Below are positions 22,715-43,865 of a stretch of DNA of 64,000 nt, one piece after another. The position numbers and the translations under genes are program-made. The stretch spans positions 64,219-128,218 of the forward strand of contig JAJTXY010000002.1 in the NCBI GenBank assembly GCA_021463865.1, given 5' to 3'. This DNA comes from Anaerolineae bacterium (GTDB taxonomy: Bacteria > Chloroflexota > Anaerolineae > Aggregatilineales > J027). Below the pieces are notes generated by a model. The model was given only the letters and a program-made list of their open reading frames with translations, made no database searches and was not told where the DNA came from. Position 1 is the first letter of the stretch. Every line of letters begins with the position of its first letter.

Positions 22715-24862
22715 TTACGGCTCAATCGTAAAGAGCATCCCAGCGCTACGACCATAGACCTCCGGGAAATAGAATTCCTGCCCAGTGGCCGGAATCACAT
22801 TAAACTGCCCCGGTAGGCCAAGACGCAGCCGATATACGTAAGTATAAGTTCCCGGCCCAAGATATGTCGCGTACAAGACCACTTTTTCATCACGCAATTC
22901 GGTATGCGAGAAATACCACCATCCCCAGTCGGCGCGGTCAGCTATTTCGAGATGGGGACGCTGACCGACAATACTCGTGGTCAACAGATGCGGGTCAACC
23001 GCTTCTGCACCAGCCGGAATGGGGTCTTCAATCACCACGTAATTGAGTGAACGCAGGGCTGTAATCGTCAGCATGACTACCACCTCATCGCCCACTTTGG
23101 CGCTGGTAATGGGTTGACGGGCAGGGTCATCCGCAAGGTAATATTGGCGCTCGATGGAGATACCCCGCGACGCTGGCTCAATTCCGGGCACATCCAAAAA
23201 CGTCGTCAGGTGGAGGGTGTAATACAGATTGCCCGGCCCTTCGCCATGCGTAATGACGACTTGATTGGCCTCATCCCACAATAATTCCTCGATCTCAACT
23301 CGCAGGCGCTGCGATTCGCGCACCGTATCGGGTGTCACTCGAGTATCTTCGGGCAGCAGTGCTTCGCCATTAAGATCAACGCCAAAAGCATAGTTGGCCT
23401 CAAGTTCGCGTGTCAGCAGCATCCAATCGGTGAGGGACATCACTGACCATGCGGTTTCTTGGGTCGTCTCCCATGCGTCGGCTTGACGTGCCGTCATCAA
23501 CCAACGTACCGCCCCCGGCAGTAGATCATTGGTGACATCATAATGCGCCAATGCCATCAACACCAAAGCCGTCGTGCGAGTATCGGTTGTCCAGTTGTAA
23601 TAATCAGGCCGATCTTCCCAATGAATCCCAGTCGCGCTCGCACTGCCCGCAAACGTGGCGGCACTCATGAAATCGCTCTTCAGCGTTTCAAGGCGCGGGT
23701 CGTTGGGGTCATTTGCCATCATGCTCATCATCAGAAACGCCTGTGCATCCAGATTTAGGCGGTGACGCTGCTCGTACATCAAGGTTAGACGCGCCGCATA
23801 GGTCGCCGAATCTAGGCCACTGGCGTAAGCGCTGCGATTCAGGGCATAGAGGATAAAAGCCCGTTGATTGAGTTTCCAATCCTGTAAATTATCGAGTCCA
23901 CCACTCCCTTCTTGCTGGGCGATATACCCGTACAAAAAGTCGCCGGCCCGTTCAATGACACTGGTATCAACGGCGGCAAAACCACTGTTACGCGCCTCAC
24001 TCAAACCAATGAGGGCATAGGCCGTCGTTAGGGGATTGGACGCATCGCCGGGGAACCAACCCCAACCACCATCGGAATGTTGAAGCGCATAAAGTCGCTG
24101 CAATCCAAAGATGACCTGCTGATTGAGATTTTGCTTCAGTTCCGGGTTCGATTGATTGAGTTCTGCGAGCGCCCGCATGGTCATGATATTGGGCAGAAAA
24201 CGACTGACCGTCTGCTCAATACATTGGTGCGGATAGTTTTGCAGATAGTTCAAACCGTCTAGCATCGGGCCTGCTAATGTATGATCAAGCCGGATGCGCA
24301 GACTGCCCCGTTCGGTGTCGGCTTGTTCAGGAAGTTCAATGGTTTCAGTAACCCGCCGCGCCTCTGGCCCATCCAAAACCCCCGCTGTGCCTACGGTTTC
24401 ATGGGCCACATATCGGTAGACGGGCAATAGGCGTTCATCACCTTGACCAAGTAGCGGTTTGCTACCATCGGTATAGGAACCATCTTCATTCCGAACAGTG
24501 AAGGTCGCATCAATATTTGAAACATCCAACACGACAATCGGCCAATCCACCCGCTGCCGCCCTTGTGCCGGAATGCTGACGGTCTGGATGAGGGTGACAT
24601 CATTTAACACCGTGAATCCTGTGCCAATCAATTCCACCTGCACGGTTTGCTCGCGTGGGGTGTTGTTGTTGACAATTGCGCCGATGCTGAGTTCATCGCC
24701 CACGACAAAAAAGCGCGGGGTAACGGGTCGAATCAGCAGGGGTTTGGTGCTGATAAAATCCGCTGTCGACTGCCCAACTAACATTGGCCCATCGGTGCCA
24801 GTTGTAATAGCACGGGCATCAATATGCCATGTGGTCAAATTATCGGGCAGGGTAATGCTCAC
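22715..24862 (-). CDS. alpha-2-macroglobulin family protein, C-terminal fragment (thioester domain); 3' part of a frameshifted gene
   Basis: Contains LPDNLTTWH, the thioester motif CIEQ (24212-24223), and the terpenoid-cyclase-like and receptor-binding-like C-terminus. The ORF's nominal 'M' is an internal GTG. Confidence 0.8.
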   Translation of the reverse strand: MSITLPDNLTTWHIDARAITTGTDGPMLVGQSTADFISTKPLLIRPVTPRFFVVGDELSIGAIVNNNTPREQTVQVELIGTGFTVLNDVTLIQTVSIPAQGRQRVDWPIVVLDVSNIDATFTVRNEDGSYTDGSKPLLGQGDERLLPVYRYVAHETVGTAGVLDGPEARRVTETIELPEQADTERGSLRIRLDHTLAGPMLDGLNYLQNYPHQCIEQTVSRFLPNIMTMRALAELNQSNPELKQNLNQQVIFGLQRLYALQHSDGGWGWFPGDASNPLTTAYALIGLSEARNSGFAAVDTSVIERAGDFLYGYIAQQEGSGGLDNLQDWKLNQRAFILYALNRSAYASGLDSATYAARLTLMYEQRHRLNLDAQAFLMMSMMANDPNDPRLETLKSDFMSAATFAGSASATGIHWEDRPDYYNWTTDTRTTALVLMALAHYDVTNDLLPGAVRWLMTARQADAWETTQETAWSVMSLTDWMLLTRELEANYAFGVDLNGEALLPEDTRVTPDTVRESQRLRVEIEELLWDEANQVVITHGEGPGNLYYTLHLTTFLDVPGIEPASRGISIERQYYLADDPARQPITSAKVGDEVVVMLTITALRSLNYVVIEDPIPAGAEAVDPHLLTTSIVGQRPHLEIADRADWGWWYFSHTELRDEKVVLYATYLGPGTYTYVYRLRLGLPGQFNVIPATGQEFYFPEVYGRSAGMLFTIEP

Positions 24863-24888: not shown

Positions 24889-27800
24889 CTACACTGGGTT
24901 CCCAGAGGGGGTATCTACAAAATCTTGCCGGATTTCGATAATCCCCGGATACCCACCGCCGCCGCCACCGCCGCCTTTGCGCCCATTGGTGACATATTGA
25001 ACGTAATCATCGGCAGAGATCGTTAAGGTAGAGGCCGTCATAATCCCCAAGCCGCGCCGACTATAAAAATATTCCAAGAGGGGTGGGCTATTGGGGGACA
25101 TAAGCCCTAGAACCGACAAATCCGTGACGCCAATCCCCACTTCGGCGCTCACCGGATTACCTGCCCAATCGCGGGTTTTTACATCAAGGGTGACGGTATC
25201 TCCCGGCCCGACGGTTTCAACACCCTCTGGCATAACGGGTGTGACTTCGACATCCATCACCAACCGCTCAGTATCAATCGTCAAAGGAATCATGCCAAAG
25301 CGGAACTGCGCGTAAGTCGTATGCTCGTCAATGCCCTTAACCAACATCACCGAAACATAGATATTGGGGGCATAGAGGTCTTCAATAGGCAGTTGATATA
25401 CATAGGAATTGGTGGTCATATGGATAATTTCGGTGCGCAAAAAGCTGTCGCGTTCCACCGTGACCAACGCGAGTGTTTCACCTTGAAATGGACTTGGTAT
25501 CAGGATTTGCGCCGTGTCACCGGGGCGATACGTATCGGCATCCGCAATCAAGGTGACACGATTATCATTACGCTGCCGCCATGAAACATATTCTGGGCTG
25601 GACACCCACATAAATCCACTGCTCAGGATTTCGTTACCTGCATCATCGCGCGAAGTGGCATACAGTTTATATGTCCCCCCGCGTGGCGGTACGTACTCGA
25701 CTTGACCCTTGCCATCGGCATCCAATGTTACTGAACCGCTGGCGACTTCGATCTCTTCCAAATCCCATGTCCACGCCATGCGTCCGTCGGTGTCTTTTTC
25801 CAACACACTTGTCCAGCGGCGCTCGACAATGCGGTATTCTACAACCTGATTCGGCACGGCTTGGCTGTCCCAATCCACTGCGATCATGTTGAAACGCGAG
25901 GTCTTGCCTGCCTGACTCAAATAGCTGTCCGGCGCAACGCCTACATAAACCTTGCCTTGATGCACCACCACCCGCACACGCCCCGCGACGGGCTGATTGC
26001 TTTCATCGGTGACGGTGGCCTCAATGGTATAAACTTGACTGCCGGGGTGATTGGCGGCTCCGGCGGGCAGACGGACGACAAAACGGCCTTCCGCGTCCGT
26101 TACACCTTCATCCTCCGATACTTTTTCAGCCCATACCCCAGAAGTCGTCTCGATGTAGTTCTCGGTATCGAGGCGGTCATAATCAAAATCTTGGAATGTC
26201 CAGCGCCCACGCCCCTGATAGTTAAAGTAATAGTCTTGGCCCAGTGCTACCCATTTAATTTGGGCATTGCTGACCGCGCCCCCAAAAAAGTATCGGGCAT
26301 CAATGGTTACATCTACCATCTCGCCCATCAAAACTTCATCGGCGGCTGGCACTGCCCGGACTTCATATTCTGGTGCGTGGTACTCGGCTACATCAAAGGT
26401 TAAACCCGGTAGATTCCAATAGTAACCCGTGTAGCGATTGTAATATTCCTGATAGCTGGGTAGGGCAACGGCAATGCGATAGTTACCACGACTGGCTTCG
26501 TCGTCCAACGTAAACTCGCCCGAAAACGACCCCTGCGGATTGACCTCAATGCGCTCTTCATAGATTTTCTGATTCGACGCATCATAGATTTCAATTGGTA
26601 CGGTTCGGTGCCCCGGCATGACGCTGTACAAAACATCGTTTTGTTTACGCAGGATACCCCGGAAATAGACGGTCTGACCCGGACGGTAGATAGGGCGATC
26701 ACTGTAGAGATACAGGCGTTGGTCACTCGGTTGATAATCCATTTGGATGTTAAAATCGCCGGGTTGGATACCGTAGATGAGACGGTTTGAGACAAAGCCA
26801 AAATGCTCAGGCGTTTGCACCACTGCATATAGGGTGCCATAGGTATCCAGTTTGGGTAGATCAACGATCACAAGACCGTTTTCATCGGTGCGCCCAAAAG
26901 CAACCACGCTGAATTTGTTGTCGTAAAATTTCACCAACAAATTGGGTTCAGGATTCCCCGTTTGCATGTTCGTAACCCAAGCAAGGGCTTCATGTTGACT
27001 GTACTTAAACGTGATATTGACTGTCGCTACAATCATCACATGGGCATTGGGTGGATAGCCGCGTTTATTGGATTGGGGCGAATTGACGTATAGCAGATAC
27101 GCCCCCGGTTCAAGGGCTTTATATTCGCCGTTTTCAATTAAAGGAACATCTGAGAGTGGCTCAACGAAATACGCGGATAGACTACCCTCTGGAATCCAGC
27201 CTTCAGTCTCATCCTCAAAGTTCTTGACCTTCCACCACAGATACCCCTCGGCACATAGCGGGCCATCTTGCACCCAGAAGGTCGTACCTGCCGGGTATTG
27301 GGTTACGGTATCGCTTGAAAAACTGGCTTCGGCATGAACCGGCAACGGACGAAGGTCATCGGCGGTCACACGGGCTTCAATATCCACAGTCAAACGCCGT
27401 GCAGCCACTCCCTGACAGGCGACATCTTCCAGACCGCGATCAACTTCTTCGGGTGAAATCAACACCATCCGGTCACGTGACACATTCAACGGGGAGGCCA
27501 CCGGGACCTGCCATGAGCGCAACCGTTGACCGGCGCGGTTATCCTGATTGGGTTGATTATTGCTGCGTGCCACCCCTGCCAGTGAGGGTAAATCTAGCCG
27601 ATAAAGTTGTAATTCAATGGTATTAATGTTGCGATGTGAGACAAACAAGCGTGTAGTGGGGTCATACGCATTGTACACCGCCATCATGCCGGGAACATTC
27701 AGCCTGAGCGACGGTTCATAGGCCCGTGTCGCAAAATTGATTTCGGTGGGTGTGGTGATTTCATTGCCGTACACATCCCGCATCCCCGGTTCTAGGGTAA

Positions 27801-29136
27801 TGGCGTAATTGACATTGGGCAGGCTTCGGAAAATCACAAAATAGGCATTCCGCCATTCTTCATAATACCCACCAATTTCACCTTCCGGCGCAGGGTCTAT
27901 CTTGATCTTATCGGCGATGCTGTCGGCATCCATTGGGGCATTAAAAAAGATGCTGAAACTGCCACCGGGGTCAACATTGCGTTCTCCATCGGCGGGATAC
28001 GTCCGATAATAATCAGGATAGGGTACGGTGCGTAAGGGCCGCAAATAGTCATTATTCAGTTCCGCACCCGTCATAGATCGCAGAACGGCATCATCCCCAA
28101 CCAGCAAATAAATCGAGTCTAGATCGAGGGTATCAAGCGTGCGGAGTCGAACCGTCCGACGATCCATTGACCATGAATATCCCATGCGTACCCTGTCCCC
28201 ATCCCAAGACTCAATATATAGGCCGTTTTGTGTAACTGGATTCATGGGCTGGGTAAAGCTCAATTCGAGAATGGGTTTCAGGGGTATATCAAATGGGGCA
28301 AAAAGTTCTCGCTCGGCAATCAATCGGTCAGCCGCATCATTCTCTTCTTCGGTATGACGCACACGCGGCGCATTCAACACACGGGCATTGGCAAATGTGG
28401 GTTTGACGGTGGAAAAGCTAAACTGATAATCCTCTTCCAATACCGCGTCGGTGGGGGTTTTGAGTCCGGCGTCAATTGTAACGGTATAGGTCGTTCCGCC
28501 AATAAATCCCTGTTCGGGCTTGAACGTATAGATCGAAGTATTGAGCCATTCGCCTGTCCCAGTCGTTTCTGGTTCGATGTGTATCGGGTTAACCAGATCA
28601 GCCTGATAGCCAATGCTGGAAAGGGGTACAACTGGACGGTTAAAGATCACCGTAACGACAGTATCTGTGGAAACATTGGTAGCCCCGTTTCCCGGTAGGA
28701 CTTCCGATATTTGCAGAGAATTCGTGGTGAATAAATGAAGCCGATAAGCAGACTCCATTGGGATATGTTGTGTATCCTCGGCAAATACGCTGAAGATCAG
28801 GTCGCTGTCGGTTGGATACCCTTCGAGTGGAGGGGAAAACCTGAGAATACGCCCCCCGTCCACCCATTCCCATACGCCACCTTCCACAGCGGGATCAACA
28901 CTAAAGAGGCCGCCACTTTCCACATTCATGGGACGGTCAAAGGTAAACTCGACTGAACGTTGGAGGCCTAGCTCTTCGCCATTTTCCGGCGATGTTTCAA
29001 TAATCTTTGGTGCAATGTTTCCAGACTGATTGGGTGGAGAGGCCTGTGGAGAATTCGGTCTAATGAGGGCAAAAATAGCAGTGCAGATTATCAGCGCCAA
29101 TGGTAGAGATACCAAAACACGCCTGTGCTTCAACAT
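24889..29136 (-). CDS. alpha-2-macroglobulin family protein, N-terminal fragment (membrane anchor, Ig-like/MG domains, SH3-like insert)
   Basis: The ATG at 29136 has a GAGGGGAG RBS. TM/signal anchor MLKHRRVLVSLPLALIICTAIFALI. It ends ...RQDFVDTPSGNPV* just where A2M proteins continue F-x-D/E-T-x-x-W. Confidence 0.8.
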   Translation of the reverse strand: MLKHRRVLVSLPLALIICTAIFALIRPNSPQASPPNQSGNIAPKIIETSPENGEELGLQRSVEFTFDRPMNVESGGLFSVDPAVEGGVWEWVDGGRILRFSPPLEGYPTDSDLIFSVFAEDTQHIPMESAYRLHLFTTNSLQISEVLPGNGATNVSTDTVVTVIFNRPVVPLSSIGYQADLVNPIHIEPETTGTGEWLNTSIYTFKPEQGFIGGTTYTVTIDAGLKTPTDAVLEEDYQFSFSTVKPTFANARVLNAPRVRHTEEENDAADRLIAERELFAPFDIPLKPILELSFTQPMNPVTQNGLYIESWDGDRVRMGYSWSMDRRTVRLRTLDTLDLDSIYLLVGDDAVLRSMTGAELNNDYLRPLRTVPYPDYYRTYPADGERNVDPGGSFSIFFNAPMDADSIADKIKIDPAPEGEIGGYYEEWRNAYFVIFRSLPNVNYAITLEPGMRDVYGNEITTPTEINFATRAYEPSLRLNVPGMMAVYNAYDPTTRLFVSHRNINTIELQLYRLDLPSLAGVARSNNQPNQDNRAGQRLRSWQVPVASPLNVSRDRMVLISPEEVDRGLEDVACQGVAARRLTVDIEARVTADDLRPLPVHAEASFSSDTVTQYPAGTTFWVQDGPLCAEGYLWWKVKNFEDETEGWIPEGSLSAYFVEPLSDVPLIENGEYKALEPGAYLLYVNSPQSNKRGYPPNAHVMIVATVNITFKYSQHEALAWVTNMQTGNPEPNLLVKFYDNKFSVVAFGRTDENGLVIVDLPKLDTYGTLYAVVQTPEHFGFVSNRLIYGIQPGDFNIQMDYQPSDQRLYLYSDRPIYRPGQTVYFRGILRKQNDVLYSVMPGHRTVPIEIYDASNQKIYEERIEVNPQGSFSGEFTLDDEASRGNYRIAVALPSYQEYYNRYTGYYWNLPGLTFDVAEYHAPEYEVRAVPAADEVLMGEMVDVTIDARYFFGGAVSNAQIKWVALGQDYYFNYQGRGRWTFQDFDYDRLDTENYIETTSGVWAEKVSEDEGVTDAEGRFVVRLPAGAANHPGSQVYTIEATVTDESNQPVAGRVRVVVHQGKVYVGVAPDSYLSQAGKTSRFNMIAVDWDSQAVPNQVVEYRIVERRWTSVLEKDTDGRMAWTWDLEEIEVASGSVTLDADGKGQVEYVPPRGGTYKLYATSRDDAGNEILSSGFMWVSSPEYVSWRQRNDNRVTLIADADTYRPGDTAQILIPSPFQGETLALVTVERDSFLRTEIIHMTTNSYVYQLPIEDLYAPNIYVSVMLVKGIDEHTTYAQFRFGMIPLTIDTERLVMDVEVTPVMPEGVETVGPGDTVTLDVKTRDWAGNPVSAEVGIGVTDLSVLGLMSPNSPPLLEYFYSRRGLGIMTASTLTISADDYVQYVTNGRKGGGGGGGGYPGIIEIRQDFVDTPSGNPV

Positions 29137-29347
29137 TTGAAATCTCCCCTCGTCAAAATTACTTTTCACGAGGTTATAACATGGGGCTGATGCTTCTGTT
29201 GAACGCGCAGGCCACGTCTATTCAATTGCTACCCCATGCCCGTCTTCCAAAAAGCTGACAAATAGCTGACGTGGTTAATTTACGCTAGGTGGTCATTGAA
29301 TTAATTGTTTCATGCGGAAAAACTGAAGGGGTTTTTTTGTGCCGATC

Positions 29348-30742
29348 TTATTGGCTTAATATTGTTTTTGCCTCTTTTATCACCTCGACCAAATCAAGAT
29401 TTTGGCCTTGCTGGGTGATTTGCATATACTCGTCGGTTTCTAATTCTCGGCAAATGGACTCAAATAAGCGACGATTGAGATGGATGGCATACCGATGCAG
29501 AACGCCCGTCCATCGTGCCGCTTGTTCATATTCTTGACCGTGCCAGAAAAAATGAACCACGATAAGCAGCGTTTTTGCCAAATAGGGTTCAATCCCAAGC
29601 TGAAGAGCAAGTTCAATAGCCTCCATTATGGCTTGGCGGGCTGGTTCATACCGATTTTGTAGAAGGTCTAAGTATGCCATATATCCTCGCGTAAGGCAGA
29701 CATAGTAAGGGGTCTTTCTTTGGCGGGCCAATTCAAGGGCTTCTCGATAAGACTTGGTCGCTGCCTCAAAGTTACCGCAGTATGTATAAATATTGCCCAG
29801 ATCAATCATCCCGCTCACCACCAAGTTTTTCATATTGATCGAGTCGGCAATTTGGATACCCTCTTGATAATGGCTAATGGCAGAATCCAGCTTATCCTGT
29901 TCGACTTCACACATCGCCAAACTAAGCAAGGCAGCGGGCAGCATTCGCATAAATCCAACATTACGGCATATTTGCACGGATCGTTCGGCTTGCTGTTCAG
30001 CAGTGACAAAATCTTGCAGGGAGACAAGACTGTTGCTAAGGGTCAGCAGAGCGACGCTCAACTCTCCCTCGCGGCCTGTTCCCTCTACGATTGCCAAATA
30101 TTTGGCAAAATAATCGTATGCCAACTGATAGTCGCCGCGAAAATGGGCCACTCGGCCAATCCCCTGATAAACACGACCAATTTCGGCGGTTGCTTGGCAT
30201 TTTTCAAATAGAACGAGCGCCCTATTTAGCAAATCTTCCGATTCATCGAACTTGCCTAGTTGTTGGGCAACCGACGCCAATGTATAGTAAGCTCGCCCCA
30301 TACTTAAGACATCTTTGGCCCGTTGACCTAAAATCAATAGTTGGTTGGCAAGCTGTGTGGCTTGTTCGGCTCGAGCCGAATAAAAATGGGCCTGTGCAAG
30401 ATGATGTAATATAGTACACTGAGCCTCAGCATTTCCGACCAGAATCGCCGCATCAAGTGCCTGTTGCAGCCATGTTACTCGTTCGGATGGCGTTTGGCGC
30501 ACTCTCAAAATATCAATTCCCGCAATCGAAAACTCTACGCATAACTGAGCCTTGTCTAGCTCATCCGCCGCACTAGCCGACCATGCCTGCCATTGACGGA
30601 TTTGACTCCAGTCCTGCTCAATCTGGTTATACCAATAGGTGCGGTTGCCATGTCCACGCCGAAAGGCCGTATTTGCCTGTTGCAGACGAGTCACATAATG
30701 TTGAGCCAGCCGATATTGAACGGTACCGCCAGAAGATGCCAT
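29348..30742 (-). CDS. tetratricopeptide (TPR) repeat protein, sensor-like partner of the upstream NB-ARC protein
   Basis: 464 aa of TPR-like helical repeats. Its start ATG overlaps the upstream stop as TAATG. Confidence 0.75.
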   Translation of the reverse strand: MASSGGTVQYRLAQHYVTRLQQANTAFRRGHGNRTYWYNQIEQDWSQIRQWQAWSASAADELDKAQLCVEFSIAGIDILRVRQTPSERVTWLQQALDAAILVGNAEAQCTILHHLAQAHFYSARAEQATQLANQLLILGQRAKDVLSMGRAYYTLASVAQQLGKFDESEDLLNRALVLFEKCQATAEIGRVYQGIGRVAHFRGDYQLAYDYFAKYLAIVEGTGREGELSVALLTLSNSLVSLQDFVTAEQQAERSVQICRNVGFMRMLPAALLSLAMCEVEQDKLDSAISHYQEGIQIADSINMKNLVVSGMIDLGNIYTYCGNFEAATKSYREALELARQRKTPYYVCLTRGYMAYLDLLQNRYEPARQAIMEAIELALQLGIEPYLAKTLLIVVHFFWHGQEYEQAARWTGVLHRYAIHLNRRLFESICRELETDEYMQITQQGQNLDLVEVIKEAKTILSQ

Positions 30743-32565
30743 TAGTTCATCACCTCATCCAAAAGCGAACGTGCGTGTAAGACCAAGAGGGCGTGCATTT
30801 GGAAGCGTCCCCCACCAACGGGTTCTAAGAGACCACGATTGACCAGTAATCTTGCAATCGGTTTCGGGTCGTCTACCTCCCATACGACGGCCATCGCAGG
30901 CAGATCAAATGTCGCAGGTTTAGCAACAAATAATCCCAAATATGCGAAATACTGCCGGGTTAAGGCATCGAGCGAATCCGTACTGCGTTTGAGAAGTGCA
31001 GTAATTGTCAGCGAGGTATCGGACTTGACGCCCAACATATCACTGGGTGCTTGGGCGGTCAGCAAGCTGGCACCCTCTCGCAAATCAGCCAATAATTCAG
31101 TCACCCCCCAGCCCAATCGAGCCTCGCTTTGTAACAGACGGCCTGCCACATGGATCGCCAACGGCAGACCTTCGAGGTCACGCACCAATTGCGTGGCTTC
31201 ATCAAGTTGATTTGCAACAGTGTCAGGAGTGAACTTTGCCAATAGTTCCAGTGCGGCATGTTCGGTCAAGACGGGTAGGCGATAAATATCGGTGGCCGTC
31301 GGAGCAAGAGCAGTCGCCACGTCATTTAAACGACTCGTCATCACCAAAGTACAGTTTTTTCCCCCGACCCGAAACGGTTGGGCATGATCCGCCTGCCACA
31401 CATCATCCACAATCAGCAGCATTCGTTTGTCACGCAGCAGCGCCGTCAATTGGGCACTAATTTCCTCGACGGTGCGGGCTTGGCCGGGTTCATTCAACCG
31501 CAATGCTTCTGCCCAAGCTCCAATCTCACTGGCGATACTGGGGTTTTCACCCAATGAGGCCCATAAGACACCATCAGGATAATGCTGGCTGAGTTCCACA
31601 TCGTGGGCCAGTGTTGCCACAAGGGTGCTTTTGCCGACACCCGGCCAGCCTTGAATAACGGTGATTGGACGTGCTTCCGGACTACCCACGCCAAGCCGTT
31701 GCTTAATCGCATGGAGCGCAGCATCACGTCCCACCAAAAGCGATGGCAGGGGCGGCATCACCCCCGAAATCGGCGCACTAATCGAGTCGGTAGACGATAC
31801 CAGCGTGGGATTTCCCTGTTGAATGGCCTCAAAAAGTCGGGTGGTCTCGCTTTCAGGAGGGGTAGCAAGTTCACTATCCAAAATTTCCACACACTGGCGA
31901 TATTGGCGTAACGCTTCTGATCGCTGACCATTCGCAGCATATAAACGCATCAAGTGGCGATGAGCAGGCTCATGTAGGGTATCAACTGCCAACCACTGGA
32001 TGGCATGGCGAATCGCTTGTTCATACTGATCCAAGTCAGCATAATAGTGGGCCAAGCGGCGTTGGACATCAGCATATTCACGCCGCAGCCATTCGCGTTG
32101 GGCTAACTGCCAGTTCTCAAATTCCAAATCATCCGGCAGGTTGAACCCAATCAAAAAATCATCGCTATAGAGTGTTGCAGCTTGTTGATAAAAATCTACA
32201 CAATCTTTACAAATGCTATCCGAACTGTGCGGATGGGCGCTATTCGCTACTAGTAGTTTTTGGAAAGCGATCACATCAACCCATACCACTTCTCGTTTGA
32301 GGCCAATGGTCATACGATCTGCTTGAATCCATTCTATCTCCACCGCCTTGGTTAGCGACCTTAGGGCACTTCGCAAAGCTGACCGCGCATGATCCTCGTC
32401 TTGATCGGGCCACAATAAACTGGCGATAACCTCGCGGCTCTGCATTTGTTCGGACAATGCGAGATAGGCGATAAGGGCCACGGCCTTGCGGCGTTCAACT
32501 TTGACAGATGTGCCTTGAAATTCGATGCGTGGGGTTCCTAACAGATACACCCGCAAGTCACTCAT
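30742..32565 (-). CDS. SARP-family regulator: OmpR-type winged helix + BTAD + NB-ARC (STAND) ATPase
   Basis: N-terminus MSDLRVYLLGTPRIEFQG...RRKAVALIAYLAL and a BTAD helical region. P-loop GWPGVGKST, Walker B LLIVDDVW, and a GLPLAI motif. Confidence 0.85.
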   Translation of the reverse strand: MSDLRVYLLGTPRIEFQGTSVKVERRKAVALIAYLALSEQMQSREVIASLLWPDQDEDHARSALRSALRSLTKAVEIEWIQADRMTIGLKREVVWVDVIAFQKLLVANSAHPHSSDSICKDCVDFYQQAATLYSDDFLIGFNLPDDLEFENWQLAQREWLRREYADVQRRLAHYYADLDQYEQAIRHAIQWLAVDTLHEPAHRHLMRLYAANGQRSEALRQYRQCVEILDSELATPPESETTRLFEAIQQGNPTLVSSTDSISAPISGVMPPLPSLLVGRDAALHAIKQRLGVGSPEARPITVIQGWPGVGKSTLVATLAHDVELSQHYPDGVLWASLGENPSIASEIGAWAEALRLNEPGQARTVEEISAQLTALLRDKRMLLIVDDVWQADHAQPFRVGGKNCTLVMTSRLNDVATALAPTATDIYRLPVLTEHAALELLAKFTPDTVANQLDEATQLVRDLEGLPLAIHVAGRLLQSEARLGWGVTELLADLREGASLLTAQAPSDMLGVKSDTSLTITALLKRSTDSLDALTRQYFAYLGLFVAKPATFDLPAMAVVWEVDDPKPIARLLVNRGLLEPVGGGRFQMHALLVLHARSLLDEVMN

Positions 32566-32578
32566 TGGTCTCGTCCCC

Positions 32579-32623
32579 CTGTCACGATTCTGTCACCAAG
32601 CTGTCGCGCAGCTTCCCTATACT
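32579..32623 (+). promoter_or_regulatory. candidate SARP-dependent promoter: CTGTCAC-N4-CTGTCAC-N4-CTGTCGC-N10-TATACT
   Basis: Heptamers at 32579-32585, 32590-32596 and 32601-32607 with an 11-bp period. The -10-like TATACT is at 32618-32623. Confidence 0.5.
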
Positions 32624-32821
32624 GACCGTCAATCAAGCAATGCTTGAGCTGTGTGCCAGTCAGCAATGTTTCCACCCATTGTAGTGGAATTTGCAGCACG
32701 GCGTTTCCTAGCAACTAGATTGCACATGGCAATGACCCTGTAATCGTTGGACAGCCGTACTGGATAGGCTCCATTGCTGACAATGCCACATTTCGTTGGA
32801 TCAAAGGGTTGGGAGAATATC

Positions 32822-35383
32822 ATGCGAATAGCAACAAATGAGTCTCGTGCAGTGCGGACATCTGTCATTTTACTGGCAGTAGTCGCCATCTTGTTTTTTC
32901 TAATTGGCTGGCCGGCCCATTCGCAGGAGCAGTCAAGTCAACGGATTGAGTCGGACAATGCGTTGGTCACTCGTGAAGGCAACTGGTCATCCCAAGCAGC
33001 CGCAGCAGCCAGCGACGGAACCTATCTCTATTCGAGTGGGGCCGAAGGGGATGTGCTGGAATTGGAGTTTGTTGGCACGACATTGGAAGTCATCTATATC
33101 GCTGGGCCAGCCTTGGGTACATTGGCCCTCGAGGTGGATGGCACAGTGCTGCGAACAGTCATCACGAGGGCTGACCAAACCGCCTATGGACAAAGCACTA
33201 TCATCAACTATCTGAGTAATGAACCCCATATGCTCCGAGTCTATGCCCAAGAGGGCGGCATCGTGGCGGTAGATGCTTTTGTCATCTCCATTGAAGACGC
33301 CACCGATAGCACTACGAGCGGCGCACCCGACGAGGAAGGCGGGATTTTTGCCAGCACCTGTACCCCGGTGAATGCCATTCATCGTGTCAGCCTCAACTAT
33401 CAAAATGAGCAGGTGTCCGGTGCATTTACCAATAGTGACTCGGCTCTATCGGAAGATGGGCGTTTTGTCGCCTTCGAATCTGCTTCATCGGAATTGGTAG
33501 CAGGCGATACCAATGGCCTGATTGACATTTTTGTGTATGACCGCCAAACCTGCCAAATAAGCCGGGTGTCTGTTGCCAATGATGGTACAGAGGCAACCTT
33601 GTCATCAGCTAATCCGGATATTTCAGCCGATGGGCGCTATGTCGTATTCGAGACAAACGCTGAGTTGGTTAGTGCAGATTCCAATGGTGTCAGCGATATC
33701 TACATGTATGACCAAGAGACTTTTGAGATCACTCGTATCTCGCGGGCTAACCTTGCCTTTCCTCAGGCGAATGGAGCTTCACATAACCCGACAATTTCTG
33801 GCGATGGGACACGCATTGCCTTCGAGTCTACCGCAACTAATCTTGTGACGGGTGATACCAATGGCGAATCAGATATTTTCCTGCGTGATCTCACCGCCGG
33901 TACGACAACGCGAGTCTCACTGACCAATGCAGGCAATGAAGCGACAGGGGGTGGCTCGTTCATGCCAGATATTGCCTCAGCGGGAGATCATGTCGCGTTT
34001 GAATCCGAGGCGACCAATCTGGTGGCAAATGATAACAACGGTGAACGTGATATTTTTGCACGAGCACTGACGGCGGGCACTACTATCCGTGTGTCCATAC
34101 CATCCGGTGGGGGCCAAGCCAATGGCAATTCATGGGATCCGGCGATCTCGTCCAATGGTACGATCATCGCATTTGAATCGGACGCGACGAACATGGTGGC
34201 AGGCGATACCAATAATTTCCGGGATGTGTTTGTGCGTACCACCAGCGGTACTCCCACTACCTCACTGGTTTCAGTCTCGACAGCCGGGGTACTAGGCGCA
34301 CTCCCATCAGCTAACCCTGCGATTGCGAATGGCGGGCGTCAAATCGTCTTTGAATCCGATTCCCCCTTAGCCACTGAAGACACCAATGGTTGGACAGACA
34401 TCTATGTGCGTGACCGCGTTGCCAATACGACAACCCTCGTTTCGATAGCACGGGATGGAACACTGGGGGATGACAATACCAGCTACCCAGCTATTTCGGG
34501 CAATGGCAATTATGTGAGCTTTGAATCAGAAGCAACCAATCTGATTGCGGGGGATACGAACGATGATCCTGATATTTATGTTGCGCCGCGTTTCCCCACA
34601 CCTGCCGACAATCTCGCGGTGTTCAGCCCCAATTTCCAAATTGTTGGACTAGTAGATGGGTTGGGTGACCCACCTGCGGCAGATGACTATACATTCTATT
34701 CAGCCTACGCGCCTACCACTGGTGGGCAGTGGGTCATGGGTGATTGGGACAGTGATGGCCTAGAAACCCCCGGGGTCTACAGTAATGGCGCGTTCTTCTT
34801 CACCAATGAACCGGGTGAGACAGAGGATTGGGAACTGCTGTGGATTGGTGTAACCGGGTCGCCCGTCACTGGACGACTGGATGCAGCCATCACCAATGAC
34901 TGTATTGGAGTCGTCGAAGGGGCTGACTTTCCACCCTACGGAATGGCCTTTGTTCTCTACTACACCTGCGACCTATCGGGTAATCTCCTGCCTACCATCG
35001 GTTTCCAATGGCTGAGTGTCCTGTTGCCCGACTCGGCAGGCTTTATCGGCACGCATCAGTTCTCCGCAGGCGATTTTGATGGGGACGGTGTGGCAACGAT
35101 TGCGTGTCGGCGCGGAACTTCGATTACATGGACTAACGATGCAGCCACGACAGGCGCTGGAGGCTTCCCGTTAGGGCAATATATCGGCGCACCGGGCATT
35201 AGTGATGAAGGCTCTTTTGTGGCGGGCGATTGGGATGGTGATACTATCGCATCATTTGGGCTGTATTATCAAGATGGCGAATTCTACTATCGCCACGATC
35301 TCGATTTCAACTCAGGGGTGTATTTCAATCAGTCGCTTGGGGTGCCGTTGGCAGGCGTAACACAGGTCTCAGCTTGGCGATAG
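32822..35383 (+). CDS. secreted/anchored protein: N-terminal beta-sandwich-like region, seven PD40 (TolB-type) beta-propeller repeats, C-terminal FG-GAP/VCBS-like repeats
   Basis: The ATG at 32822 has a GGGAGAA RBS. TM/signal TSVILLAVVAILFFLIGW. Seven repeats fit the pattern DGxxVAFES.A.NLV.GDTNG..DI(F/Y).(R/Y)D. Three GDWD(S/G)DG-like repeats are present. Confidence 0.7.
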   Translation: MRIATNESRAVRTSVILLAVVAILFFLIGWPAHSQEQSSQRIESDNALVTREGNWSSQAAAAASDGTYLYSSGAEGDVLELEFVGTTLEVIYIAGPALGTLALEVDGTVLRTVITRADQTAYGQSTIINYLSNEPHMLRVYAQEGGIVAVDAFVISIEDATDSTTSGAPDEEGGIFASTCTPVNAIHRVSLNYQNEQVSGAFTNSDSALSEDGRFVAFESASSELVAGDTNGLIDIFVYDRQTCQISRVSVANDGTEATLSSANPDISADGRYVVFETNAELVSADSNGVSDIYMYDQETFEITRISRANLAFPQANGASHNPTISGDGTRIAFESTATNLVTGDTNGESDIFLRDLTAGTTTRVSLTNAGNEATGGGSFMPDIASAGDHVAFESEATNLVANDNNGERDIFARALTAGTTIRVSIPSGGGQANGNSWDPAISSNGTIIAFESDATNMVAGDTNNFRDVFVRTTSGTPTTSLVSVSTAGVLGALPSANPAIANGGRQIVFESDSPLATEDTNGWTDIYVRDRVANTTTLVSIARDGTLGDDNTSYPAISGNGNYVSFESEATNLIAGDTNDDPDIYVAPRFPTPADNLAVFSPNFQIVGLVDGLGDPPAADDYTFYSAYAPTTGGQWVMGDWDSDGLETPGVYSNGAFFFTNEPGETEDWELLWIGVTGSPVTGRLDAAITNDCIGVVEGADFPPYGMAFVLYYTCDLSGNLLPTIGFQWLSVLLPDSAGFIGTHQFSAGDFDGDGVATIACRRGTSITWTNDAATTGAGGFPLGQYIGAPGISDEGSFVAGDWDGDTIASFGLYYQDGEFYYRHDLDFNSGVYFNQSLGVPLAGVTQVSAWR

Positions 35384-35415
35384 GGCATACCAATCAACAT
35401 CCCTTGCTTTCTACA

Positions 35416-35448
35416 AAGGTCGGGTTACAAAGCCCGGCCTTTTTGTTT
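35416..35448 (+). terminator. Rho-independent terminator of the propeller gene
   Basis: AAGGTCGGG / CCCGGCCTT. 9-bp stem with one G-U pair and an 8-nt loop, followed by TTTTGTTT. Confidence 0.7.
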
Positions 35449-35450
35449 AG

Positions 35451-35495
35451 GCGTCATACAGTTGTCACGTTTCTGTCGCGCCGTTTTTTTATACT
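35451..35495 (+). promoter_or_regulatory. second copy of the heptamer/-10 module: (GCGTCAT)-N4-TTGTCAC-N4-CTGTCGC-N10-TATACT
   Basis: Heptamers at 35451, 35462 and 35473 with an 11-bp period. TATACT is at 35490-35495. 21/27 identity to 32601-32627. Confidence 0.45.
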
Positions 35496-35501
35496 AACCT
35501 C

Positions 35502-35583
35502 TGTCTTGATCACCTTGCACTTGTATTGTCTCAACCCTCCTCATCCGCTCCCACTTTTTGTAGGGGTTGAGACATACCTTTTT
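35502..35583 (+). ncRNA. candidate small RNA (orphan unit of about 80 nt between the module promoter and a hairpin + T-run)
   Basis: No credible ORF or RBS. TGTCTCAACCC (35527-35537) pairs with GGGTTGAGACA (35564-35574). The loop is C-rich (CCCUCCUCAUCCGCUCCCAC), followed by TACCTTTTTG. Confidence 0.3.
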
Positions 35584-35588
35584 GAGAA

Positions 35589-36470
35589 TTAGCCCAATTC
35601 CCTATTCCGGGTTTGGCTCATTAGATGGATATAACCATCTTCCAGACTTGGCTCAGTGGATACGGCGTTCGGGAAAGCTCCTGCATCCCCGATCACCCGA
35701 TACTGCGTCCCTTGCGCCAATTGAAGTGTGGAGACCACTTTTAGACCGTGATTCGGGCGTTCTCCATCCGTCACAATGTTCCAGACCTGTCCACGTGTTT
35801 TTTGGATTAACTCATTGGGCGCACCCCGAAACAGCACAGTTCCGTTATACATGATAGCCAAATCACGGCAACTTTGGCTGATATCTTCAATGATATGGGT
35901 TGAAAGAATCACCGTCGCATTTTCTGCCAGTTCCGAAAACAGGTTTCGCAGCCGTACTCGTTCTTCAGGATCAAGTCCTGCCGTTGGTTCATCCACAATA
36001 ATAAGCCGAGGATTGCCGATGAGGGCCTGCGCGATGCCGATACGCCGTTTCATGCCGCCAGAATAGGCCTTTAGTCTGCGGTCTGCTACCTCGGTCAAAT
36101 GCACCTTTTCTAAGGCTTCCTGTACCTGCCGCCTGCGCTGCTGGCGATTGGTAACGCCCTTCAAAATAGCGACATAATCTAAAAACTCGGCGCCCATCAA
36201 ATGCGGATAGAGGCCAAGTTCTTGTGGCAGATACCCTAATATAGCTTTGGCGGCTTGTTTACCTTTTAGGGTGTGCATATCGTGTCCGTTGACCTCGACG
36301 CGGCCAGTCGTCCAATGCAGCAATCCGGCGATGATTCTCATGAGACTGGTTTTGCCCGCGCCATTTGGCCCAACCAATCCAAACATCCCAGTCCCGATTT
36401 CAAGCGAAATATCATTCAGTGCCGTGACATCACCTTTATAGATTTTGGTGAGATGTTCAATTTTAATCAT
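35589..36470 (-). CDS. ABC transporter ATP-binding protein
   Basis: Walker A GPNGAGKTS, signature YSGGMKRR, Walker B LIIVDEPTAGLD. Start is the ATG at 36470 (MIKIEHLTKIY). The longer ORF overlaps the upstream gene. Confidence 0.9.
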   Translation of the reverse strand: MIKIEHLTKIYKGDVTALNDISLEIGTGMFGLVGPNGAGKTSLMRIIAGLLHWTTGRVEVNGHDMHTLKGKQAAKAILGYLPQELGLYPHLMGAEFLDYVAILKGVTNRQQRRRQVQEALEKVHLTEVADRRLKAYSGGMKRRIGIAQALIGNPRLIIVDEPTAGLDPEERVRLRNLFSELAENATVILSTHIIEDISQSCRDLAIMYNGTVLFRGAPNELIQKTRGQVWNIVTDGERPNHGLKVVSTLQLAQGTQYRVIGDAGAFPNAVSTEPSLEDGYIHLMSQTRNRELG

Positions 36471-39750: not shown

Positions 39751-42297
39751 TTATAAGCGCGGGTCTACGGGTTCGCTTTCAAGGGCAAGTACCCCAAAGA
39801 CACCCTCATGTACACGGCGTAGCGGTTCTTTTTGGACAAACCGTTCCAGCGACTCAATACTCAGGGCAAATTCGCGGGCGGCCAAAGACCGCTTGCCTTT
39901 CAGACCACGACTACGCAGACGGACAATCTGCTCAGGGGCGGTGTACTCTGGCCCATAGATAATCCGCAGATATTCGCGTCCGCGTACCTTCATCGCAGGC
40001 TGAAGAATCCCATAGCGACCTTTGACAATAAAATCTAGCGGTTTGACAACCATACCCTCGCCGCCTTGTTGGGTCATTTCCTCCCACCAATGTACCCCTT
40101 CGGCTTGACTATCGGGATTCGTAACATCCACGATTTTATAGGCGGTTGGATACAGCACGGTTTCGCCAACCGGATGCAGCTTGCCGATCATTTCCATATG
40201 CCAGAGATGAGATTTATCGGCATGGGTAGACCGTTCACTGGCTAACAAATGAAAAGGCGCTAGTTTCAGATCATCAATGGAGGTCACATCCCAACAATAG
40301 CGCCGGTAGGCCTCAATATAGTGATTGACCATTGCCGCGCGCGGTTGGAAATGACCCAATAACTGAGCCGCATCGGTCAGACGGGCGGATGTCATTTCAA
40401 GAGCGGCGATAGTCTCACGCATCGCATTGCCTGCTGCCGACCCCACCGCTGCATACTGGCGCTGCAATAATTCCTGTGCTTTGGCTGACCAAGGCATCAA
40501 TTCGCAGTCGAGGGCCAGCCAGTCAGTATTGAGTTCATCCCACCAACCTGCTTCTCCAATGGCATCGCGTACCCGACTCAAAAATTCGGTTTCTAGTAGG
40601 CCGTCATCAAAGAAACGGCGTCCAGTACGGGTATAACATACTCCAAAACCCTCACCGATCACACCAAAACGCCGACGGGCCGCATCTTCATCCCGACAAA
40701 CAATCACTACAGCCCGTGACCCCATATGTTTTTCTTCGCAGATCACCTGTGGCACGCCATTGTCGCGGTAATAGGCAAAGGCCTCCAGCGGATGTTCTAG
40801 TAAATCAGGCAGTTGCGTTGTTTCCGTTGGTGACATAGTGGGTGGCAAATAAATCAGCCATTTCGGATTGACTGCAAAACGACTCATGACCTCCAACGCC
40901 GCAATCGCATTTTCCTCCCGAATGGTGATATGTTTCATCAAACGTGTATTGATAAGCCGCTTACCGATAACATCCTCAATATCCAGCACATCATCGTACT
41001 GCTGTTGAGAGGTCAGTGCCGGGGCGCTTTCGGTTAGGAAGGGTCGCACCGGTTCAGAATAGGTGTGCCGTGCCGGAACCGACACCACTTCTTTTTCGGG
41101 ATAACGTAAGGCTGTTAATGCCCCGCCGAATACACAGCCCGTATCAATATTGATGGTTCGGTTTAACCATTCCGCTTGCGGCACAGGCGTATGCCCATAC
41201 ACGACGGTTGCCGAGCCGCGATATTCAGCCGCCCAATTATGACGCACTGGCAGGCCGAACTCGTCGGTCTCGCCAGTCGTTTCGCCATACAGGGCAAATT
41301 CACGGACAGTGCCCGAAGCGCGTCCAGCATAATTTTCTTTCATACCCGCATGGGCCACCACCAAACGCCCTCCATCCAGTACATAATGGCTAATGAGGCC
41401 CTCGACAAAATCCGCTACCTGTTTTTTGAATTCAGGGGTCTCGTTTTCCAATTGCGCCAACGATTCAGCAAGGCCATGTTTGATTTGCACATCTCGCCCG
41501 CGCAGTTTTCGCATGAGTTTAATGTCATGATTACCGGGGACACAGATCGCCGTGCCTGTCTCAACCATGCCCATCACCAAGCGAAGAACATCCGGGATTT
41601 TTGGCCCACGATCTACCAAGTCACCCAAAAAGATGGCTTTGCGGCCTTCCGAGGGTGTCACTTGTGTACCATTAACGGCATAACCCATGTTTTCCAGTAA
41701 CGTCACGAGTTCATCAAAGCAACCATGCACATCGCCGATGATATCAAATGGGCCATGTTCATGTTTCAGATTATTATGTAAGGGCTGGCGCGTAATCTGG
41801 ACAGCGGCGATTTCTTCCTCAGATTTCAAGATATAGACCTGCCGAAAACCCTCCTTTTCCAATAGGCGGAGGGAACGTCTTAGCTCTTGGCGCTGACGTT
41901 TAATGACCTGCGACCCAAAATTTCGATCCGCCCGTTTCTGGTTGCGTTCGATGCAGATGCGTTCCGGTACGTCCAAAACAATCGCTGTCAGCAAAGCATG
42001 ATGTTCACGGGCCAGTTTAATCAGGGGCTTACGGGCATCAGGCTGCACGCTGGTCGCATCAATGACTGTCAATTTCATATTGGCGAGGCGTTTACCTGCG
42101 ATGAAATGAACCACTTCAAAGGCATCTTTGGTGGCGTCTTGGCTATTTTCATCATCCGAGACCAACCCCCGGCAAAAATCCGAGGAGATGATTTCGGTTG
42201 GCAAAAAGTGCGTCCGTGCAAAAGTAGATTTACCGCTGCCAGAGACGCCAATCAATACAACAAGTGAGAACTCAGGAAGGGTAATATTTAAGGTCAT
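39751..42297 (-). CDS. pnkp: polynucleotide kinase-phosphatase with C-terminal ligase-like adenylyltransferase domain (bacterial Pnkp)
   Basis: Kinase P-loop GVSGSGKST. Metallophosphoesterase motifs GDVHGC, GDLVDRG and GNHD. A ligase-like C-terminal domain (EEKHMGSR). 848 aa. Confidence 0.85.
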   Translation of the reverse strand: MTLNITLPEFSLVVLIGVSGSGKSTFARTHFLPTEIISSDFCRGLVSDDENSQDATKDAFEVVHFIAGKRLANMKLTVIDATSVQPDARKPLIKLAREHHALLTAIVLDVPERICIERNQKRADRNFGSQVIKRQRQELRRSLRLLEKEGFRQVYILKSEEEIAAVQITRQPLHNNLKHEHGPFDIIGDVHGCFDELVTLLENMGYAVNGTQVTPSEGRKAIFLGDLVDRGPKIPDVLRLVMGMVETGTAICVPGNHDIKLMRKLRGRDVQIKHGLAESLAQLENETPEFKKQVADFVEGLISHYVLDGGRLVVAHAGMKENYAGRASGTVREFALYGETTGETDEFGLPVRHNWAAEYRGSATVVYGHTPVPQAEWLNRTINIDTGCVFGGALTALRYPEKEVVSVPARHTYSEPVRPFLTESAPALTSQQQYDDVLDIEDVIGKRLINTRLMKHITIREENAIAALEVMSRFAVNPKWLIYLPPTMSPTETTQLPDLLEHPLEAFAYYRDNGVPQVICEEKHMGSRAVVIVCRDEDAARRRFGVIGEGFGVCYTRTGRRFFDDGLLETEFLSRVRDAIGEAGWWDELNTDWLALDCELMPWSAKAQELLQRQYAAVGSAAGNAMRETIAALEMTSARLTDAAQLLGHFQPRAAMVNHYIEAYRRYCWDVTSIDDLKLAPFHLLASERSTHADKSHLWHMEMIGKLHPVGETVLYPTAYKIVDVTNPDSQAEGVHWWEEMTQQGGEGMVVKPLDFIVKGRYGILQPAMKVRGREYLRIIYGPEYTAPEQIVRLRSRGLKGKRSLAAREFALSIESLERFVQKEPLRRVHEGVFGVLALESEPVDPRL

Positions 42298-42298
42298 T

Positions 42299-43705: not shown

Positions 43706-43865
43706 CGTTTTGGTTTCTTGTTGGTCATTTTCCACTTATCATAAAAGACTAAATTCAAAATGTTAAGGGTCAAGATTCATATTTACATATTTTAAAACAT
43801 TTTAAGAGGCCACAATAGTCCAAGTAAAGTTTAGATAGATTAAAGAGAGGGCTTGGCTCAAATAG

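Follow-up and report, generated by a model that had tools for sequence, protein, structure and literature searches.

A 64-kb stretch of DNA from an Anaerolineae (Chloroflexota) host, hereafter the window, carries at positions 32579-32623 three phased direct repeats followed by a TATACT hexamer, directly before the start of a minus-strand gene for a transcriptional regulator. As judged from its sequence, this combination is a conserved activator-dependent promoter of the Streptomyces antibiotic-regulator (SARP) kind. We further put at about 80% the probability that it works as a SARP-dependent operator-promoter, which is bound by the adjacent regulator and fires rightward toward the gene for a secreted PD40 protein. 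SARP activators are textbook regulators of actinomycete antibiotic synthesis. A literature search turned up no SARP binding sites outside actinomycetes, and the window, with a G+C content of about 50%, does not derive from Streptomyces. The elements of the site are as follows.

32579-32611, plus strand: operator of three 11-bp direct-repeat units, read from the sequence
32579-32589, plus strand: unit 1, CTGTCACGATT, with heptamer CTGTCAC at 32579-32585
32590-32600, plus strand: unit 2, CTGTCACCAAG, with heptamer CTGTCAC at 32590-32596
32601-32611, plus strand: unit 3, CTGTCGCGCAG, with heptamer CTGTCGC at 32601-32607
32618-32623, plus strand: -10 hexamer TATACT, 17 nt past the start of unit 3
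32630-32631, plus strand: predicted start C-A, inferred from the pyrimidine-A of the regulator family, with an offset in the window that differs by 1 nt from that of the family

When re-read from the sequence, the three heptamers, their 4-nt spacers (GATT between the first and second, CAAG between the second and third) and TATACT all lie where an original prediction, made by a model from the letters of this DNA, had placed them. The 10-nt gap between the third heptamer and TATACT (32608-32617) is likewise confirmed, but the contrast that had been drawn between 10 bp here and about 8 bp elsewhere reflects only the register in which the repeats are read. The real conserved unit comprises 8 of the 11 nucleotides (CTGTCACG, CTGTCACC and CTGTCGCG), the last three being free. 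No -35 element is present, the -35 position of the TATACT promoter being occupied by ACCAAG, and a scan of 32300-33000 for both complete sigma-70 promoters and terminators found neither. Hence, an activator should be needed at this promoter. The site is also exceptional in its surroundings: it is the sole period-11 triple of 7-mers (at most one mismatch) in the window, where 0.015 such triples would be expected, or 0.043 if periods of 10-12 are admitted, according to 400 simulated first-order Markov sequences of 64 kb. Similarly, a position weight matrix (PWM) trained only on 27 other genomes, with the window excluded, scores the site at 41.9 bits, against a best of 12.7 among 30 shuffled windows. 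After this site and a second box described below, the next-best score in the window is 1.9.

The geometry is that of the best-characterised SARP complex. In the structure of AfsR with RNA polymerase at afsS, the two 11-bp repeats, which span -40 to -19 with the downstream one at -29 to -19, are each bound by one of two adjoining protomers, whose contacts are confined to the leading 8 bp of a repeat and spare the final 3 (PMC10936776). With the afsS -35 element placed at -38 to -33 and a 20-bp spacer after it (PMC11301090), the -10 starts at -12, which is 17 nt past the start of the downstream repeat, a distance that we derived from these two reports (PMC10936776, PMC11301090). The same 17 nt, start to start, separate unit 3 from TATACT, and the earlier claim of a match to characterised SARPs holds in this form. 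More generally, published SARP sites are direct repeats with a spacing of 11 or 22 bp and with the 3' repeat a few bp from the -10, and PimR, DnrI and ActII-ORF4 provide precedents for three heptamers separated by 4 nt. Of the features by which a SARP box is recognised, 11-bp phasing, a 7-8 bp core with 3-4 free bases, a fixed distance to the -10 and a regulator with winged helix-turn-helix (wHTH) and BTAD domains are found here.

Conservation of the box and the protein predicted to read it

The regulator has three close orthologues (L001-L003; 97, 96 and 95% identity) in Anaerolineae/Chloroflexota metagenome-assembled genomes (MAGs) from reactors and two remoter ones (L004, 67%; L005, 55%). 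A profile scan added about 60 further full-length relatives of about 600 aa with 50-68% identity, all in Chloroflexota MAGs, nearly all of these Anaerolineae, and often several per genome. The box is identical in L001-L003. In L004 it reads TTGTCAC-GGTG-TTGTCAC-GGAG-CTGTCGC-GTTTGCTACC-TATACT, which retains the cores and the -10, while the spacers and the 10-nt gap have changed in sequence with all lengths preserved. The strict module (three 8-nt period-11 units with TAnnnT 17 nt past the start of unit 3) is present in 42 of the 66 family upstream regions, and the first unit mostly begins 12-13 nt from the regulator ATG (13 nt in the window). When the hexamer is not preselected, a phased triple is found in 38 of 63 regions, and TAnnnT then stands at a single fixed offset in 33 of these 38, as against 0-8 regions at any other offset. 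Together with the missing -35 element, this agrees with the earlier proposal that phased direct repeats replace the -35. The original prediction had named loss of phasing in relatives as an observation against it; the opposite is seen, both phasing and TATACT being kept at 95-97%, 67% and lower identity. The family hexamer has base frequencies of T.95, A.97, T.87, A.74, C.50 and T.95, and the base 7 nt past it is A (.82), with a pyrimidine (.82) in front, a pyrimidine-A being the usual signature of a transcription start.

The gene divergent from the regulator varies by locus, including class-V aminotransferases, secreted hydrolases, PD40 proteins, PPC-domain proteins and Orn/DAP decarboxylases. 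Because it differs between loci, the module appears to travel with the regulator and to drive whatever gene lies beyond. The class-V aminotransferase-fold proteins, of about 500 aa, occur at L013, L028 and L034, where the fold is Pfam-confirmed, and at L021, L060 and L065, where it was judged by N-terminal similarity; the divergent gene of L016 encodes a SufS-like enzyme, and that of L024 looks similar by its N-terminus. The window holds no homologue of these aminotransferase-type genes. The reading frame of the 55% orthologue (L005/L052, 6001-6010; MAG F11_13) is interrupted by TAG at codon 3 (MS*IHFF...), and that of the L060 regulator by a stop or frameshift within codons 1-260. Either could be a pseudogene or the product of an assembly error, and boxes remain upstream of both.

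The regulator and its partner are encoded on the strand opposite to the box.

30742-32565, minus strand: regulator of 607 aa, OmpR-type wHTH and BTAD (SARP domain), then NB-ARC ATPase (Pfam BTAD 5.7e-21, NB-ARC 3.1e-24)
32574-32579, minus strand: regulator Shine-Dalgarno GGGGGA, 8 nt from the ATG and abutting unit 1
29348-30742, minus strand: TPR protein of 464 aa (Pfam TPR families), whose start overlaps the regulator stop (ATGA)

The Pfam matches to BTAD and NB-ARC agree with the earlier description of the neighbour as a SARP/NB-ARC regulator; Trans_reg_C did not reach E 1e-3 on it. With a profile built from the N-termini of 57 family members, matches are obtained to the SARP domain of AfsR (8HVR, 8K60, 8JKE; profile positions 4-253) and to EmbR (2FEZ). 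Such a profile was needed to reach these structures, since the N-terminal 252 aa, used as a lone query against the PDB, gave a designed TPR as the sole match. A wHTH-only profile reaches EmbR too weakly (E 0.0046) for a one-to-one mapping of the AfsR contact residues. The NCBIfam AfsR model aligns collinearly to the two open reading frames (ORFs), positions 28-610 to the regulator (92 bits) and 716-883 to the TPR ORF (50 bits), with both scores far below the equivalog cut-off of 1430. This argues for a split AfsR-like regulator and not AfsR itself: AfsR joins SARP, NOD and TPR in one polypeptide, and here two overlapping ORFs are found, of which the second is the predicted separated sensor part. 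The overlapping pair is also present in L004. The adjacency of regulator and box thus stands as originally described, with the separation of the TPR part as a point that we add. The box also adjoins the regulator's ribosome-binding site, as had been stated, with the regulator ATG at 32565, and a purine-rich stretch occupies the Shine-Dalgarno position in family members too.

Evidence as to which protein reads the repeats comes from the family itself, in which the repeat word changes together with the recognition helix of the regulator, as located by alignment to helix 3 of EmbR.

Helix AR-S-ALRSTL-R-xLT (window included): word GTCACG / GTCGCG
Helix AR-A/N-ALRSTL-P-xLT: word GT(A/T)GCG or GCTGCG
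Helix A(R/H/Y)-A-ALRSTL-(H/Y/S): word GTGA(C/T)G
Helix GR-T-SLRSSL-H-NLTS: word (A/G)TCACG

Where one genome has several paralogues, their helices and their words are different (for example, GTCACG at L010 and ATGATG at L068 of MAG_03). Because word and helix co-vary even between paralogues, a cognate regulator/operator pair is supported, though the pairing was counted without phylogenetic correction, which weakens this line of argument. We infer that the adjacent 607-aa regulator is the protein predicted to bind the repeats. In a more speculative reading, a specificity code for repeat positions 3-5 would reside in residues 62 and 69 of the recognition helix, and the SARP regulons of uncultured Chloroflexota would be predictable from sequence.

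This co-variation also bears on the strongest competing explanation, a PHO-box-like site for a PhoB/OmpR-family response regulator, at which two or three direct repeats replace the -35 and the phosphorylated regulator activates. The resemblance is close and tells against assigning the repeats to a SARP: CTGTCAC is identical at 6 of 7 positions to the E. coli PHO-box CTGTCAT, and the PHO box consists of two 11-nt units, each with 7 conserved and 4 less conserved positions, the same architecture as in the window (PMC4415409). Further, the DNA-binding domains of PhoB and SARPs share a fold, an OmpR/PhoB-type winged helix deployed in tandem, and AfsR and PhoP use a common site at afsS (PMC10972967). 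Among the matches listed from a pattern scan, a GC-rich Chloroflexia locus (L115, 2814-2858) carries phased CCGTCAC repeats (CCGTCGCC/CCGTCACC/CCGTCACG) and TAGCAT 12 nt directly upstream of an OmpR-type response regulator gene. These could be a chance match or a Pho-like autoregulated site, but they come from a scan with many chance matches in GC-rich genomes. PhoB, however, is a phosphorylated response regulator with a global regulon, whereas here the box adjoins a family regulator at most loci and its word tracks that neighbouring STAND-type protein. Instead of one motif per genome at phosphate-scavenging genes, the words differ between paralogue-adjacent boxes; the genes downstream are heterogeneous and not pst/pho (class-V aminotransferases, secreted hydrolases, PD40, P460), and no pst/pho genes occur among the window ORFs scanned. 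Since the word follows the helix between paralogues, a single global PhoB-type regulator is disfavoured, and we give this explanation little credence.

Predicted direction of transcription, likely targets and a second box

The gene toward which the promoter would fire is followed by its own terminator-like structure.

32822-35383, plus strand: probable target, a secreted 853-aa PD40 beta-propeller-repeat protein, first gene downstream on that strand
35419-35449, plus strand: terminator-like hairpin and T-run after the PD40 gene (GGTCGGG-loop-CCCGGCC, then TTTTTGTTT), conserved in L001-L003

The PD40 gene is most likely the rightward target of the predicted promoter. It has a Shine-Dalgarno GGGAG 7 nt before its ATG, and its product begins with a signal-peptide-like N-terminus. 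In the original prediction it was a secreted PD40/FG-GAP protein; the PD40 repeats and the signal-peptide-like start stand, but FG-GAP has no Pfam match at E<=1e-3, with just GDWDxDG-type motifs in the C-terminal third. A direction away from the regulator, and with it the earlier statement that the module points toward this gene, is backed by the bias of the first hexamer base (T.95 on the plus strand vs.68 on the other), by the pyrimidine-A signal on the same strand and by boxes remote from any regulator. Where the latter carry the hexamer, a same-strand gene follows each of them, and leaders of 30-60 nt prevail among those examined, most of them with a visible ribosome-binding site.

L041, -3553: regulator-remote box before a cytochrome P460/cupredoxin protein
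L055, -4553, and L049, +3642: regulator-remote boxes before a conserved small protein
L109, L133, L145 and L162: regulator-remote boxes in genomes that encode their family regulator on a different contig

The matches listed from the pattern scan across genomes are dominated by chance in GC-rich genomes. In one subgroup, with L094 (+89), L148 (+77), L150, L153 (+74) and L154 (+41), a conserved small ORF comes first after the box and encodes 60-80 aa of the form M.PF.PWQDTI.LLSG.RP.RTPRPGE.F... with a hydrophobic tail. At L049, and twice at L055, the box is followed by a small protein of a different pattern (M.PD.PEI..A.Y....RM.EAEK.RL).

Several observations weigh against a simple rightward promoter for the PD40 gene. 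TAnnnT on the plus strand automatically reads xAnnnT one base over on the opposite strand, where the T1 is present in 68% of family members, and for this reason the hexamer alone leaves the direction unfixed. The leader from the predicted start to the ATG at 32822 would be about 190 nt, far longer than the 30-90 nt at other boxes, and the promoter could serve something else inside it. Moreover, contigs from RNA runs extend straight across the box, from the regulator coding region to 32696 or 32757, and a clean start at 32630 alone is therefore not matched. These contigs are undirected, shallow, from related strains and in some cases DNA-like (100-kb contigs), and those crossing the box may be explained by carried-over DNA or by a long leader of the regulator.

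Folding of the predicted leader (32630-32830) reveals no unusual degree of structure (z -0.89), and an Rfam search of 32500-32900 returned nothing. A perfect 10-nt inverted repeat lies within it at 32659-32668 and 32772-32781 (GTCAGCAATG / CATTGCTGAC), with arms 103 nt apart that fall in blocks invariant across L001-L003, while the intervening sequence varies. The leader also contains a 25-codon ORF (32666-32743; MFPPIVVEFAARRFLATRLHMAMTL) with no visible Shine-Dalgarno in front, whose frame and length are kept in L001-L003 despite many mid-ORF substitutions; it may be due to chance.

The PWM also uncovered a second box directly past the PD40 terminator-like hairpin, which is an addition to the original prediction.

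35451-35495, plus strand: second box, with unit 1 GCGTCATACAG (weak), unit 2 TTGTCACGTTT and unit 3 CTGTCGCGCCG, a 6-nt gap TTTTTT and TATACT at 35490-35495
35502-35583, plus strand: candidate transcript of about 80 nt from the second box, with a hairpin at 35523-35577 and T5 at 35579-35583

This box scores 39.0 bits, compared with the shuffled maximum of 12.7, and in L001-L003 its units 2-3 and -10 are conserved while unit 1 decays. It is very likely that the same regulator drives this second promoter. The segment 35502-35583 is better conserved than its flanks in L001-L003, its hairpin has a folding energy of -20.7 kcal/mol (z -2.9), and it ends just before the stop codon (35589) of a convergent ABC ATPase gene; one RNA-run contig ends at 35568. 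Rfam gave only sub-threshold matches over 35400-35650 and none over the candidate transcript itself. We regard 35502-35583 as a candidate regulator-driven small RNA, for which this support is modest. A peptide-coding role was considered and rejected, as L002 and L003 carry compensating 1-nt indels.

Proposed mechanism and alternative explanations

We propose that the wHTH and BTAD domains of the 607-aa regulator would bind as side-by-side protomers, one per 11-bp unit and all on one face of the helix, with the two promoter-proximal units taking the place of the -35. The bound regulator would recruit sigma-A RNA polymerase to TATACT, and transcription would start near 32630/32631 and run rightward into the secreted PD40 gene. 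The NB-ARC ATPase and the separate TPR protein probably gate this activity in an AfsR-like manner, and the second promoter, under the same regulator, would yield a short terminated transcript. Occupancy of the box probably also lowers the expression of the regulator itself: the regulator mRNA crosses the box, and occupancy should therefore interfere with its transcription. Such negative feedback is plausible, a reasonable expectation rather than a finding. By eye, the candidates for the regulator's own minus-strand promoter are CAGAAT, CAGTAT and TACAAT (32683-32678), all without a convincing -35 or conservation in L004.

The hexamer itself could be part of an overlapping divergent promoter. 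In many family members the hexamer continues as TATACT-A-n-CA, which on the opposite strand reads TGnTAGTAT, resembling an extended -10 directed toward the regulator; in the window the opposite-strand hexamer is CAGTAT without the TG. A wider scheme would join the box, the shared hexamer and the regulator start into a bidirectional switch, with the small RNA (35502-35583) as a target and the residue 62/69 code as its specificity. With the regulator off, polymerase would use the opposite-strand hexamer or an upstream promoter and cross the empty box; with the regulator on, the occupied box would turn polymerase onto the target promoter and block the regulator's own transcription. We consider this whole scheme speculative and rather unlikely to be right in all its parts.

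A narrower alternative treats the box as an autorepression or roadblock operator only, with TATACT either serving as the regulator's own -10 (CAGTAT) or irrelevant, and nothing activated rightward. The constant 12-13 nt between box and regulator ATG across the family would suit such an operator, as would the RNA contigs that cross the box and the differing divergent genes; the opposite-strand hexamer, moreover, has A2 and T6 by construction, T1 in 68% and TGnT in about 40% of cases. Yet CAGTAT here lacks the TG, and the stronger T1 and the pyrimidine-A 7 nt downstream both lie on the plus strand. Further, the identical box and -10 recur far from regulators upstream of same-strand genes, the second box included, and the geometry matches an activation complex rather than the site of a repressor. 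We accordingly rate pure autorepression a shade below the PHO-box explanation. That the repeats act in RNA, as GUGACAG/GCGACAG motifs in the 5' untranslated region of the regulator that bind a protein or modulate translation, has in its favour that they abut the Shine-Dalgarno and are transcribed within the regulator mRNA, but it is very improbable: 11-nt phasing, a fixed hexamer distance, co-variation with the helix and regulator-remote promoters are properties at the DNA level, and no Rfam family matches. Finally, CTGTCRC is common in the window (20 occurrences vs 11.4 expected), but a chance occurrence without function has a negligible probability and is refuted by the conservation of the module, with variable spacers, in dozens of divergent genomes, beyond the 0.015 phased triples expected per window.

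Genomic setting and comparison with known SARP systems

The genes around the regulator include a split alpha-2-macroglobulin, glycoside hydrolases, an ABC exporter and a Pnkp-Hen1 RNA-repair pair; no biosynthetic or antibiotic cluster is found among them in the window, and PADLOC gave no meaningful match to defence systems there. The alpha-2-macroglobulin is divided between two minus-strand ORFs 27 nt apart (22715-24862 and 24889-29169), one with the N-terminal MG domains and bait region and the other with A2M/TED/MG10. The RNA-repair pair, Pnkp (kinase-phosphatase-ligase) and the Hen1 methyltransferase, lies at 39751-43735 on the minus strand.

The mechanism proposed here is itself ordinary, and what is new, as far as the literature search goes, is a SARP-type operator-promoter in Chloroflexota. 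The full grammar of a SARP promoter, with 8+3 units phased at 11 bp and a -10 at a distance of 17 nt, is present in Anaerolineae from wastewater and anammox-type reactors, where the module would control secreted proteins, and possibly a small RNA, rather than antibiotic clusters. For the window, this assigns a regulator, two predicted promoters and likely targets to unannotated intergenic DNA. More generally, the family supplies dozens of natural regulator/operator pairs with differing repeat words for the study of how SARP winged helices read DNA, and its data set enables regulon prediction in unculturable organisms.

Among known systems, EmbR of Mycobacterium tuberculosis (2FEZ) shares the wHTH and BTAD (SARP) fold, and the family profile aligns to its helix-turn-helix; it has an FHA domain and no NB-ARC or TPR. 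PimR (a SARP-LAL protein acting at pimM), DnrI and ActII-ORF4 are alike in that the regulator gene often lies next to, and divergent from, its target. They differ in controlling biosynthetic clusters and in having no reported fixed spacing to their own start codon, and the PimR site, further, lies upstream of a -35 instead of replacing it. The closest parallel is AfsR at afsS: both systems have 11-bp repeats whose first 8 bp are conserved or contacted, 17 nt to the -10 and a poor -35 that is replaced, and both regulators share the domain order SARP, NOD/NB-ARC ATPase and TPR. AfsR, which is further defined by control through AfsK-type Ser/Thr phosphorylation, also has a small downstream unit, afsS, among its targets, to which the candidate transcript of about 80 nt would correspond here. 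In contrast, afsS has two repeats with the word CGTT(T/C)ATCG, where the window has three with CTGTCACG; the TPR region is part of one polypeptide in AfsR and a separate, translationally coupled protein here; and the system described here belongs to a Chloroflexota host of about 50% GC, with no antibiotic cluster near the regulator and with a box that abuts the regulator's own ribosome-binding site.

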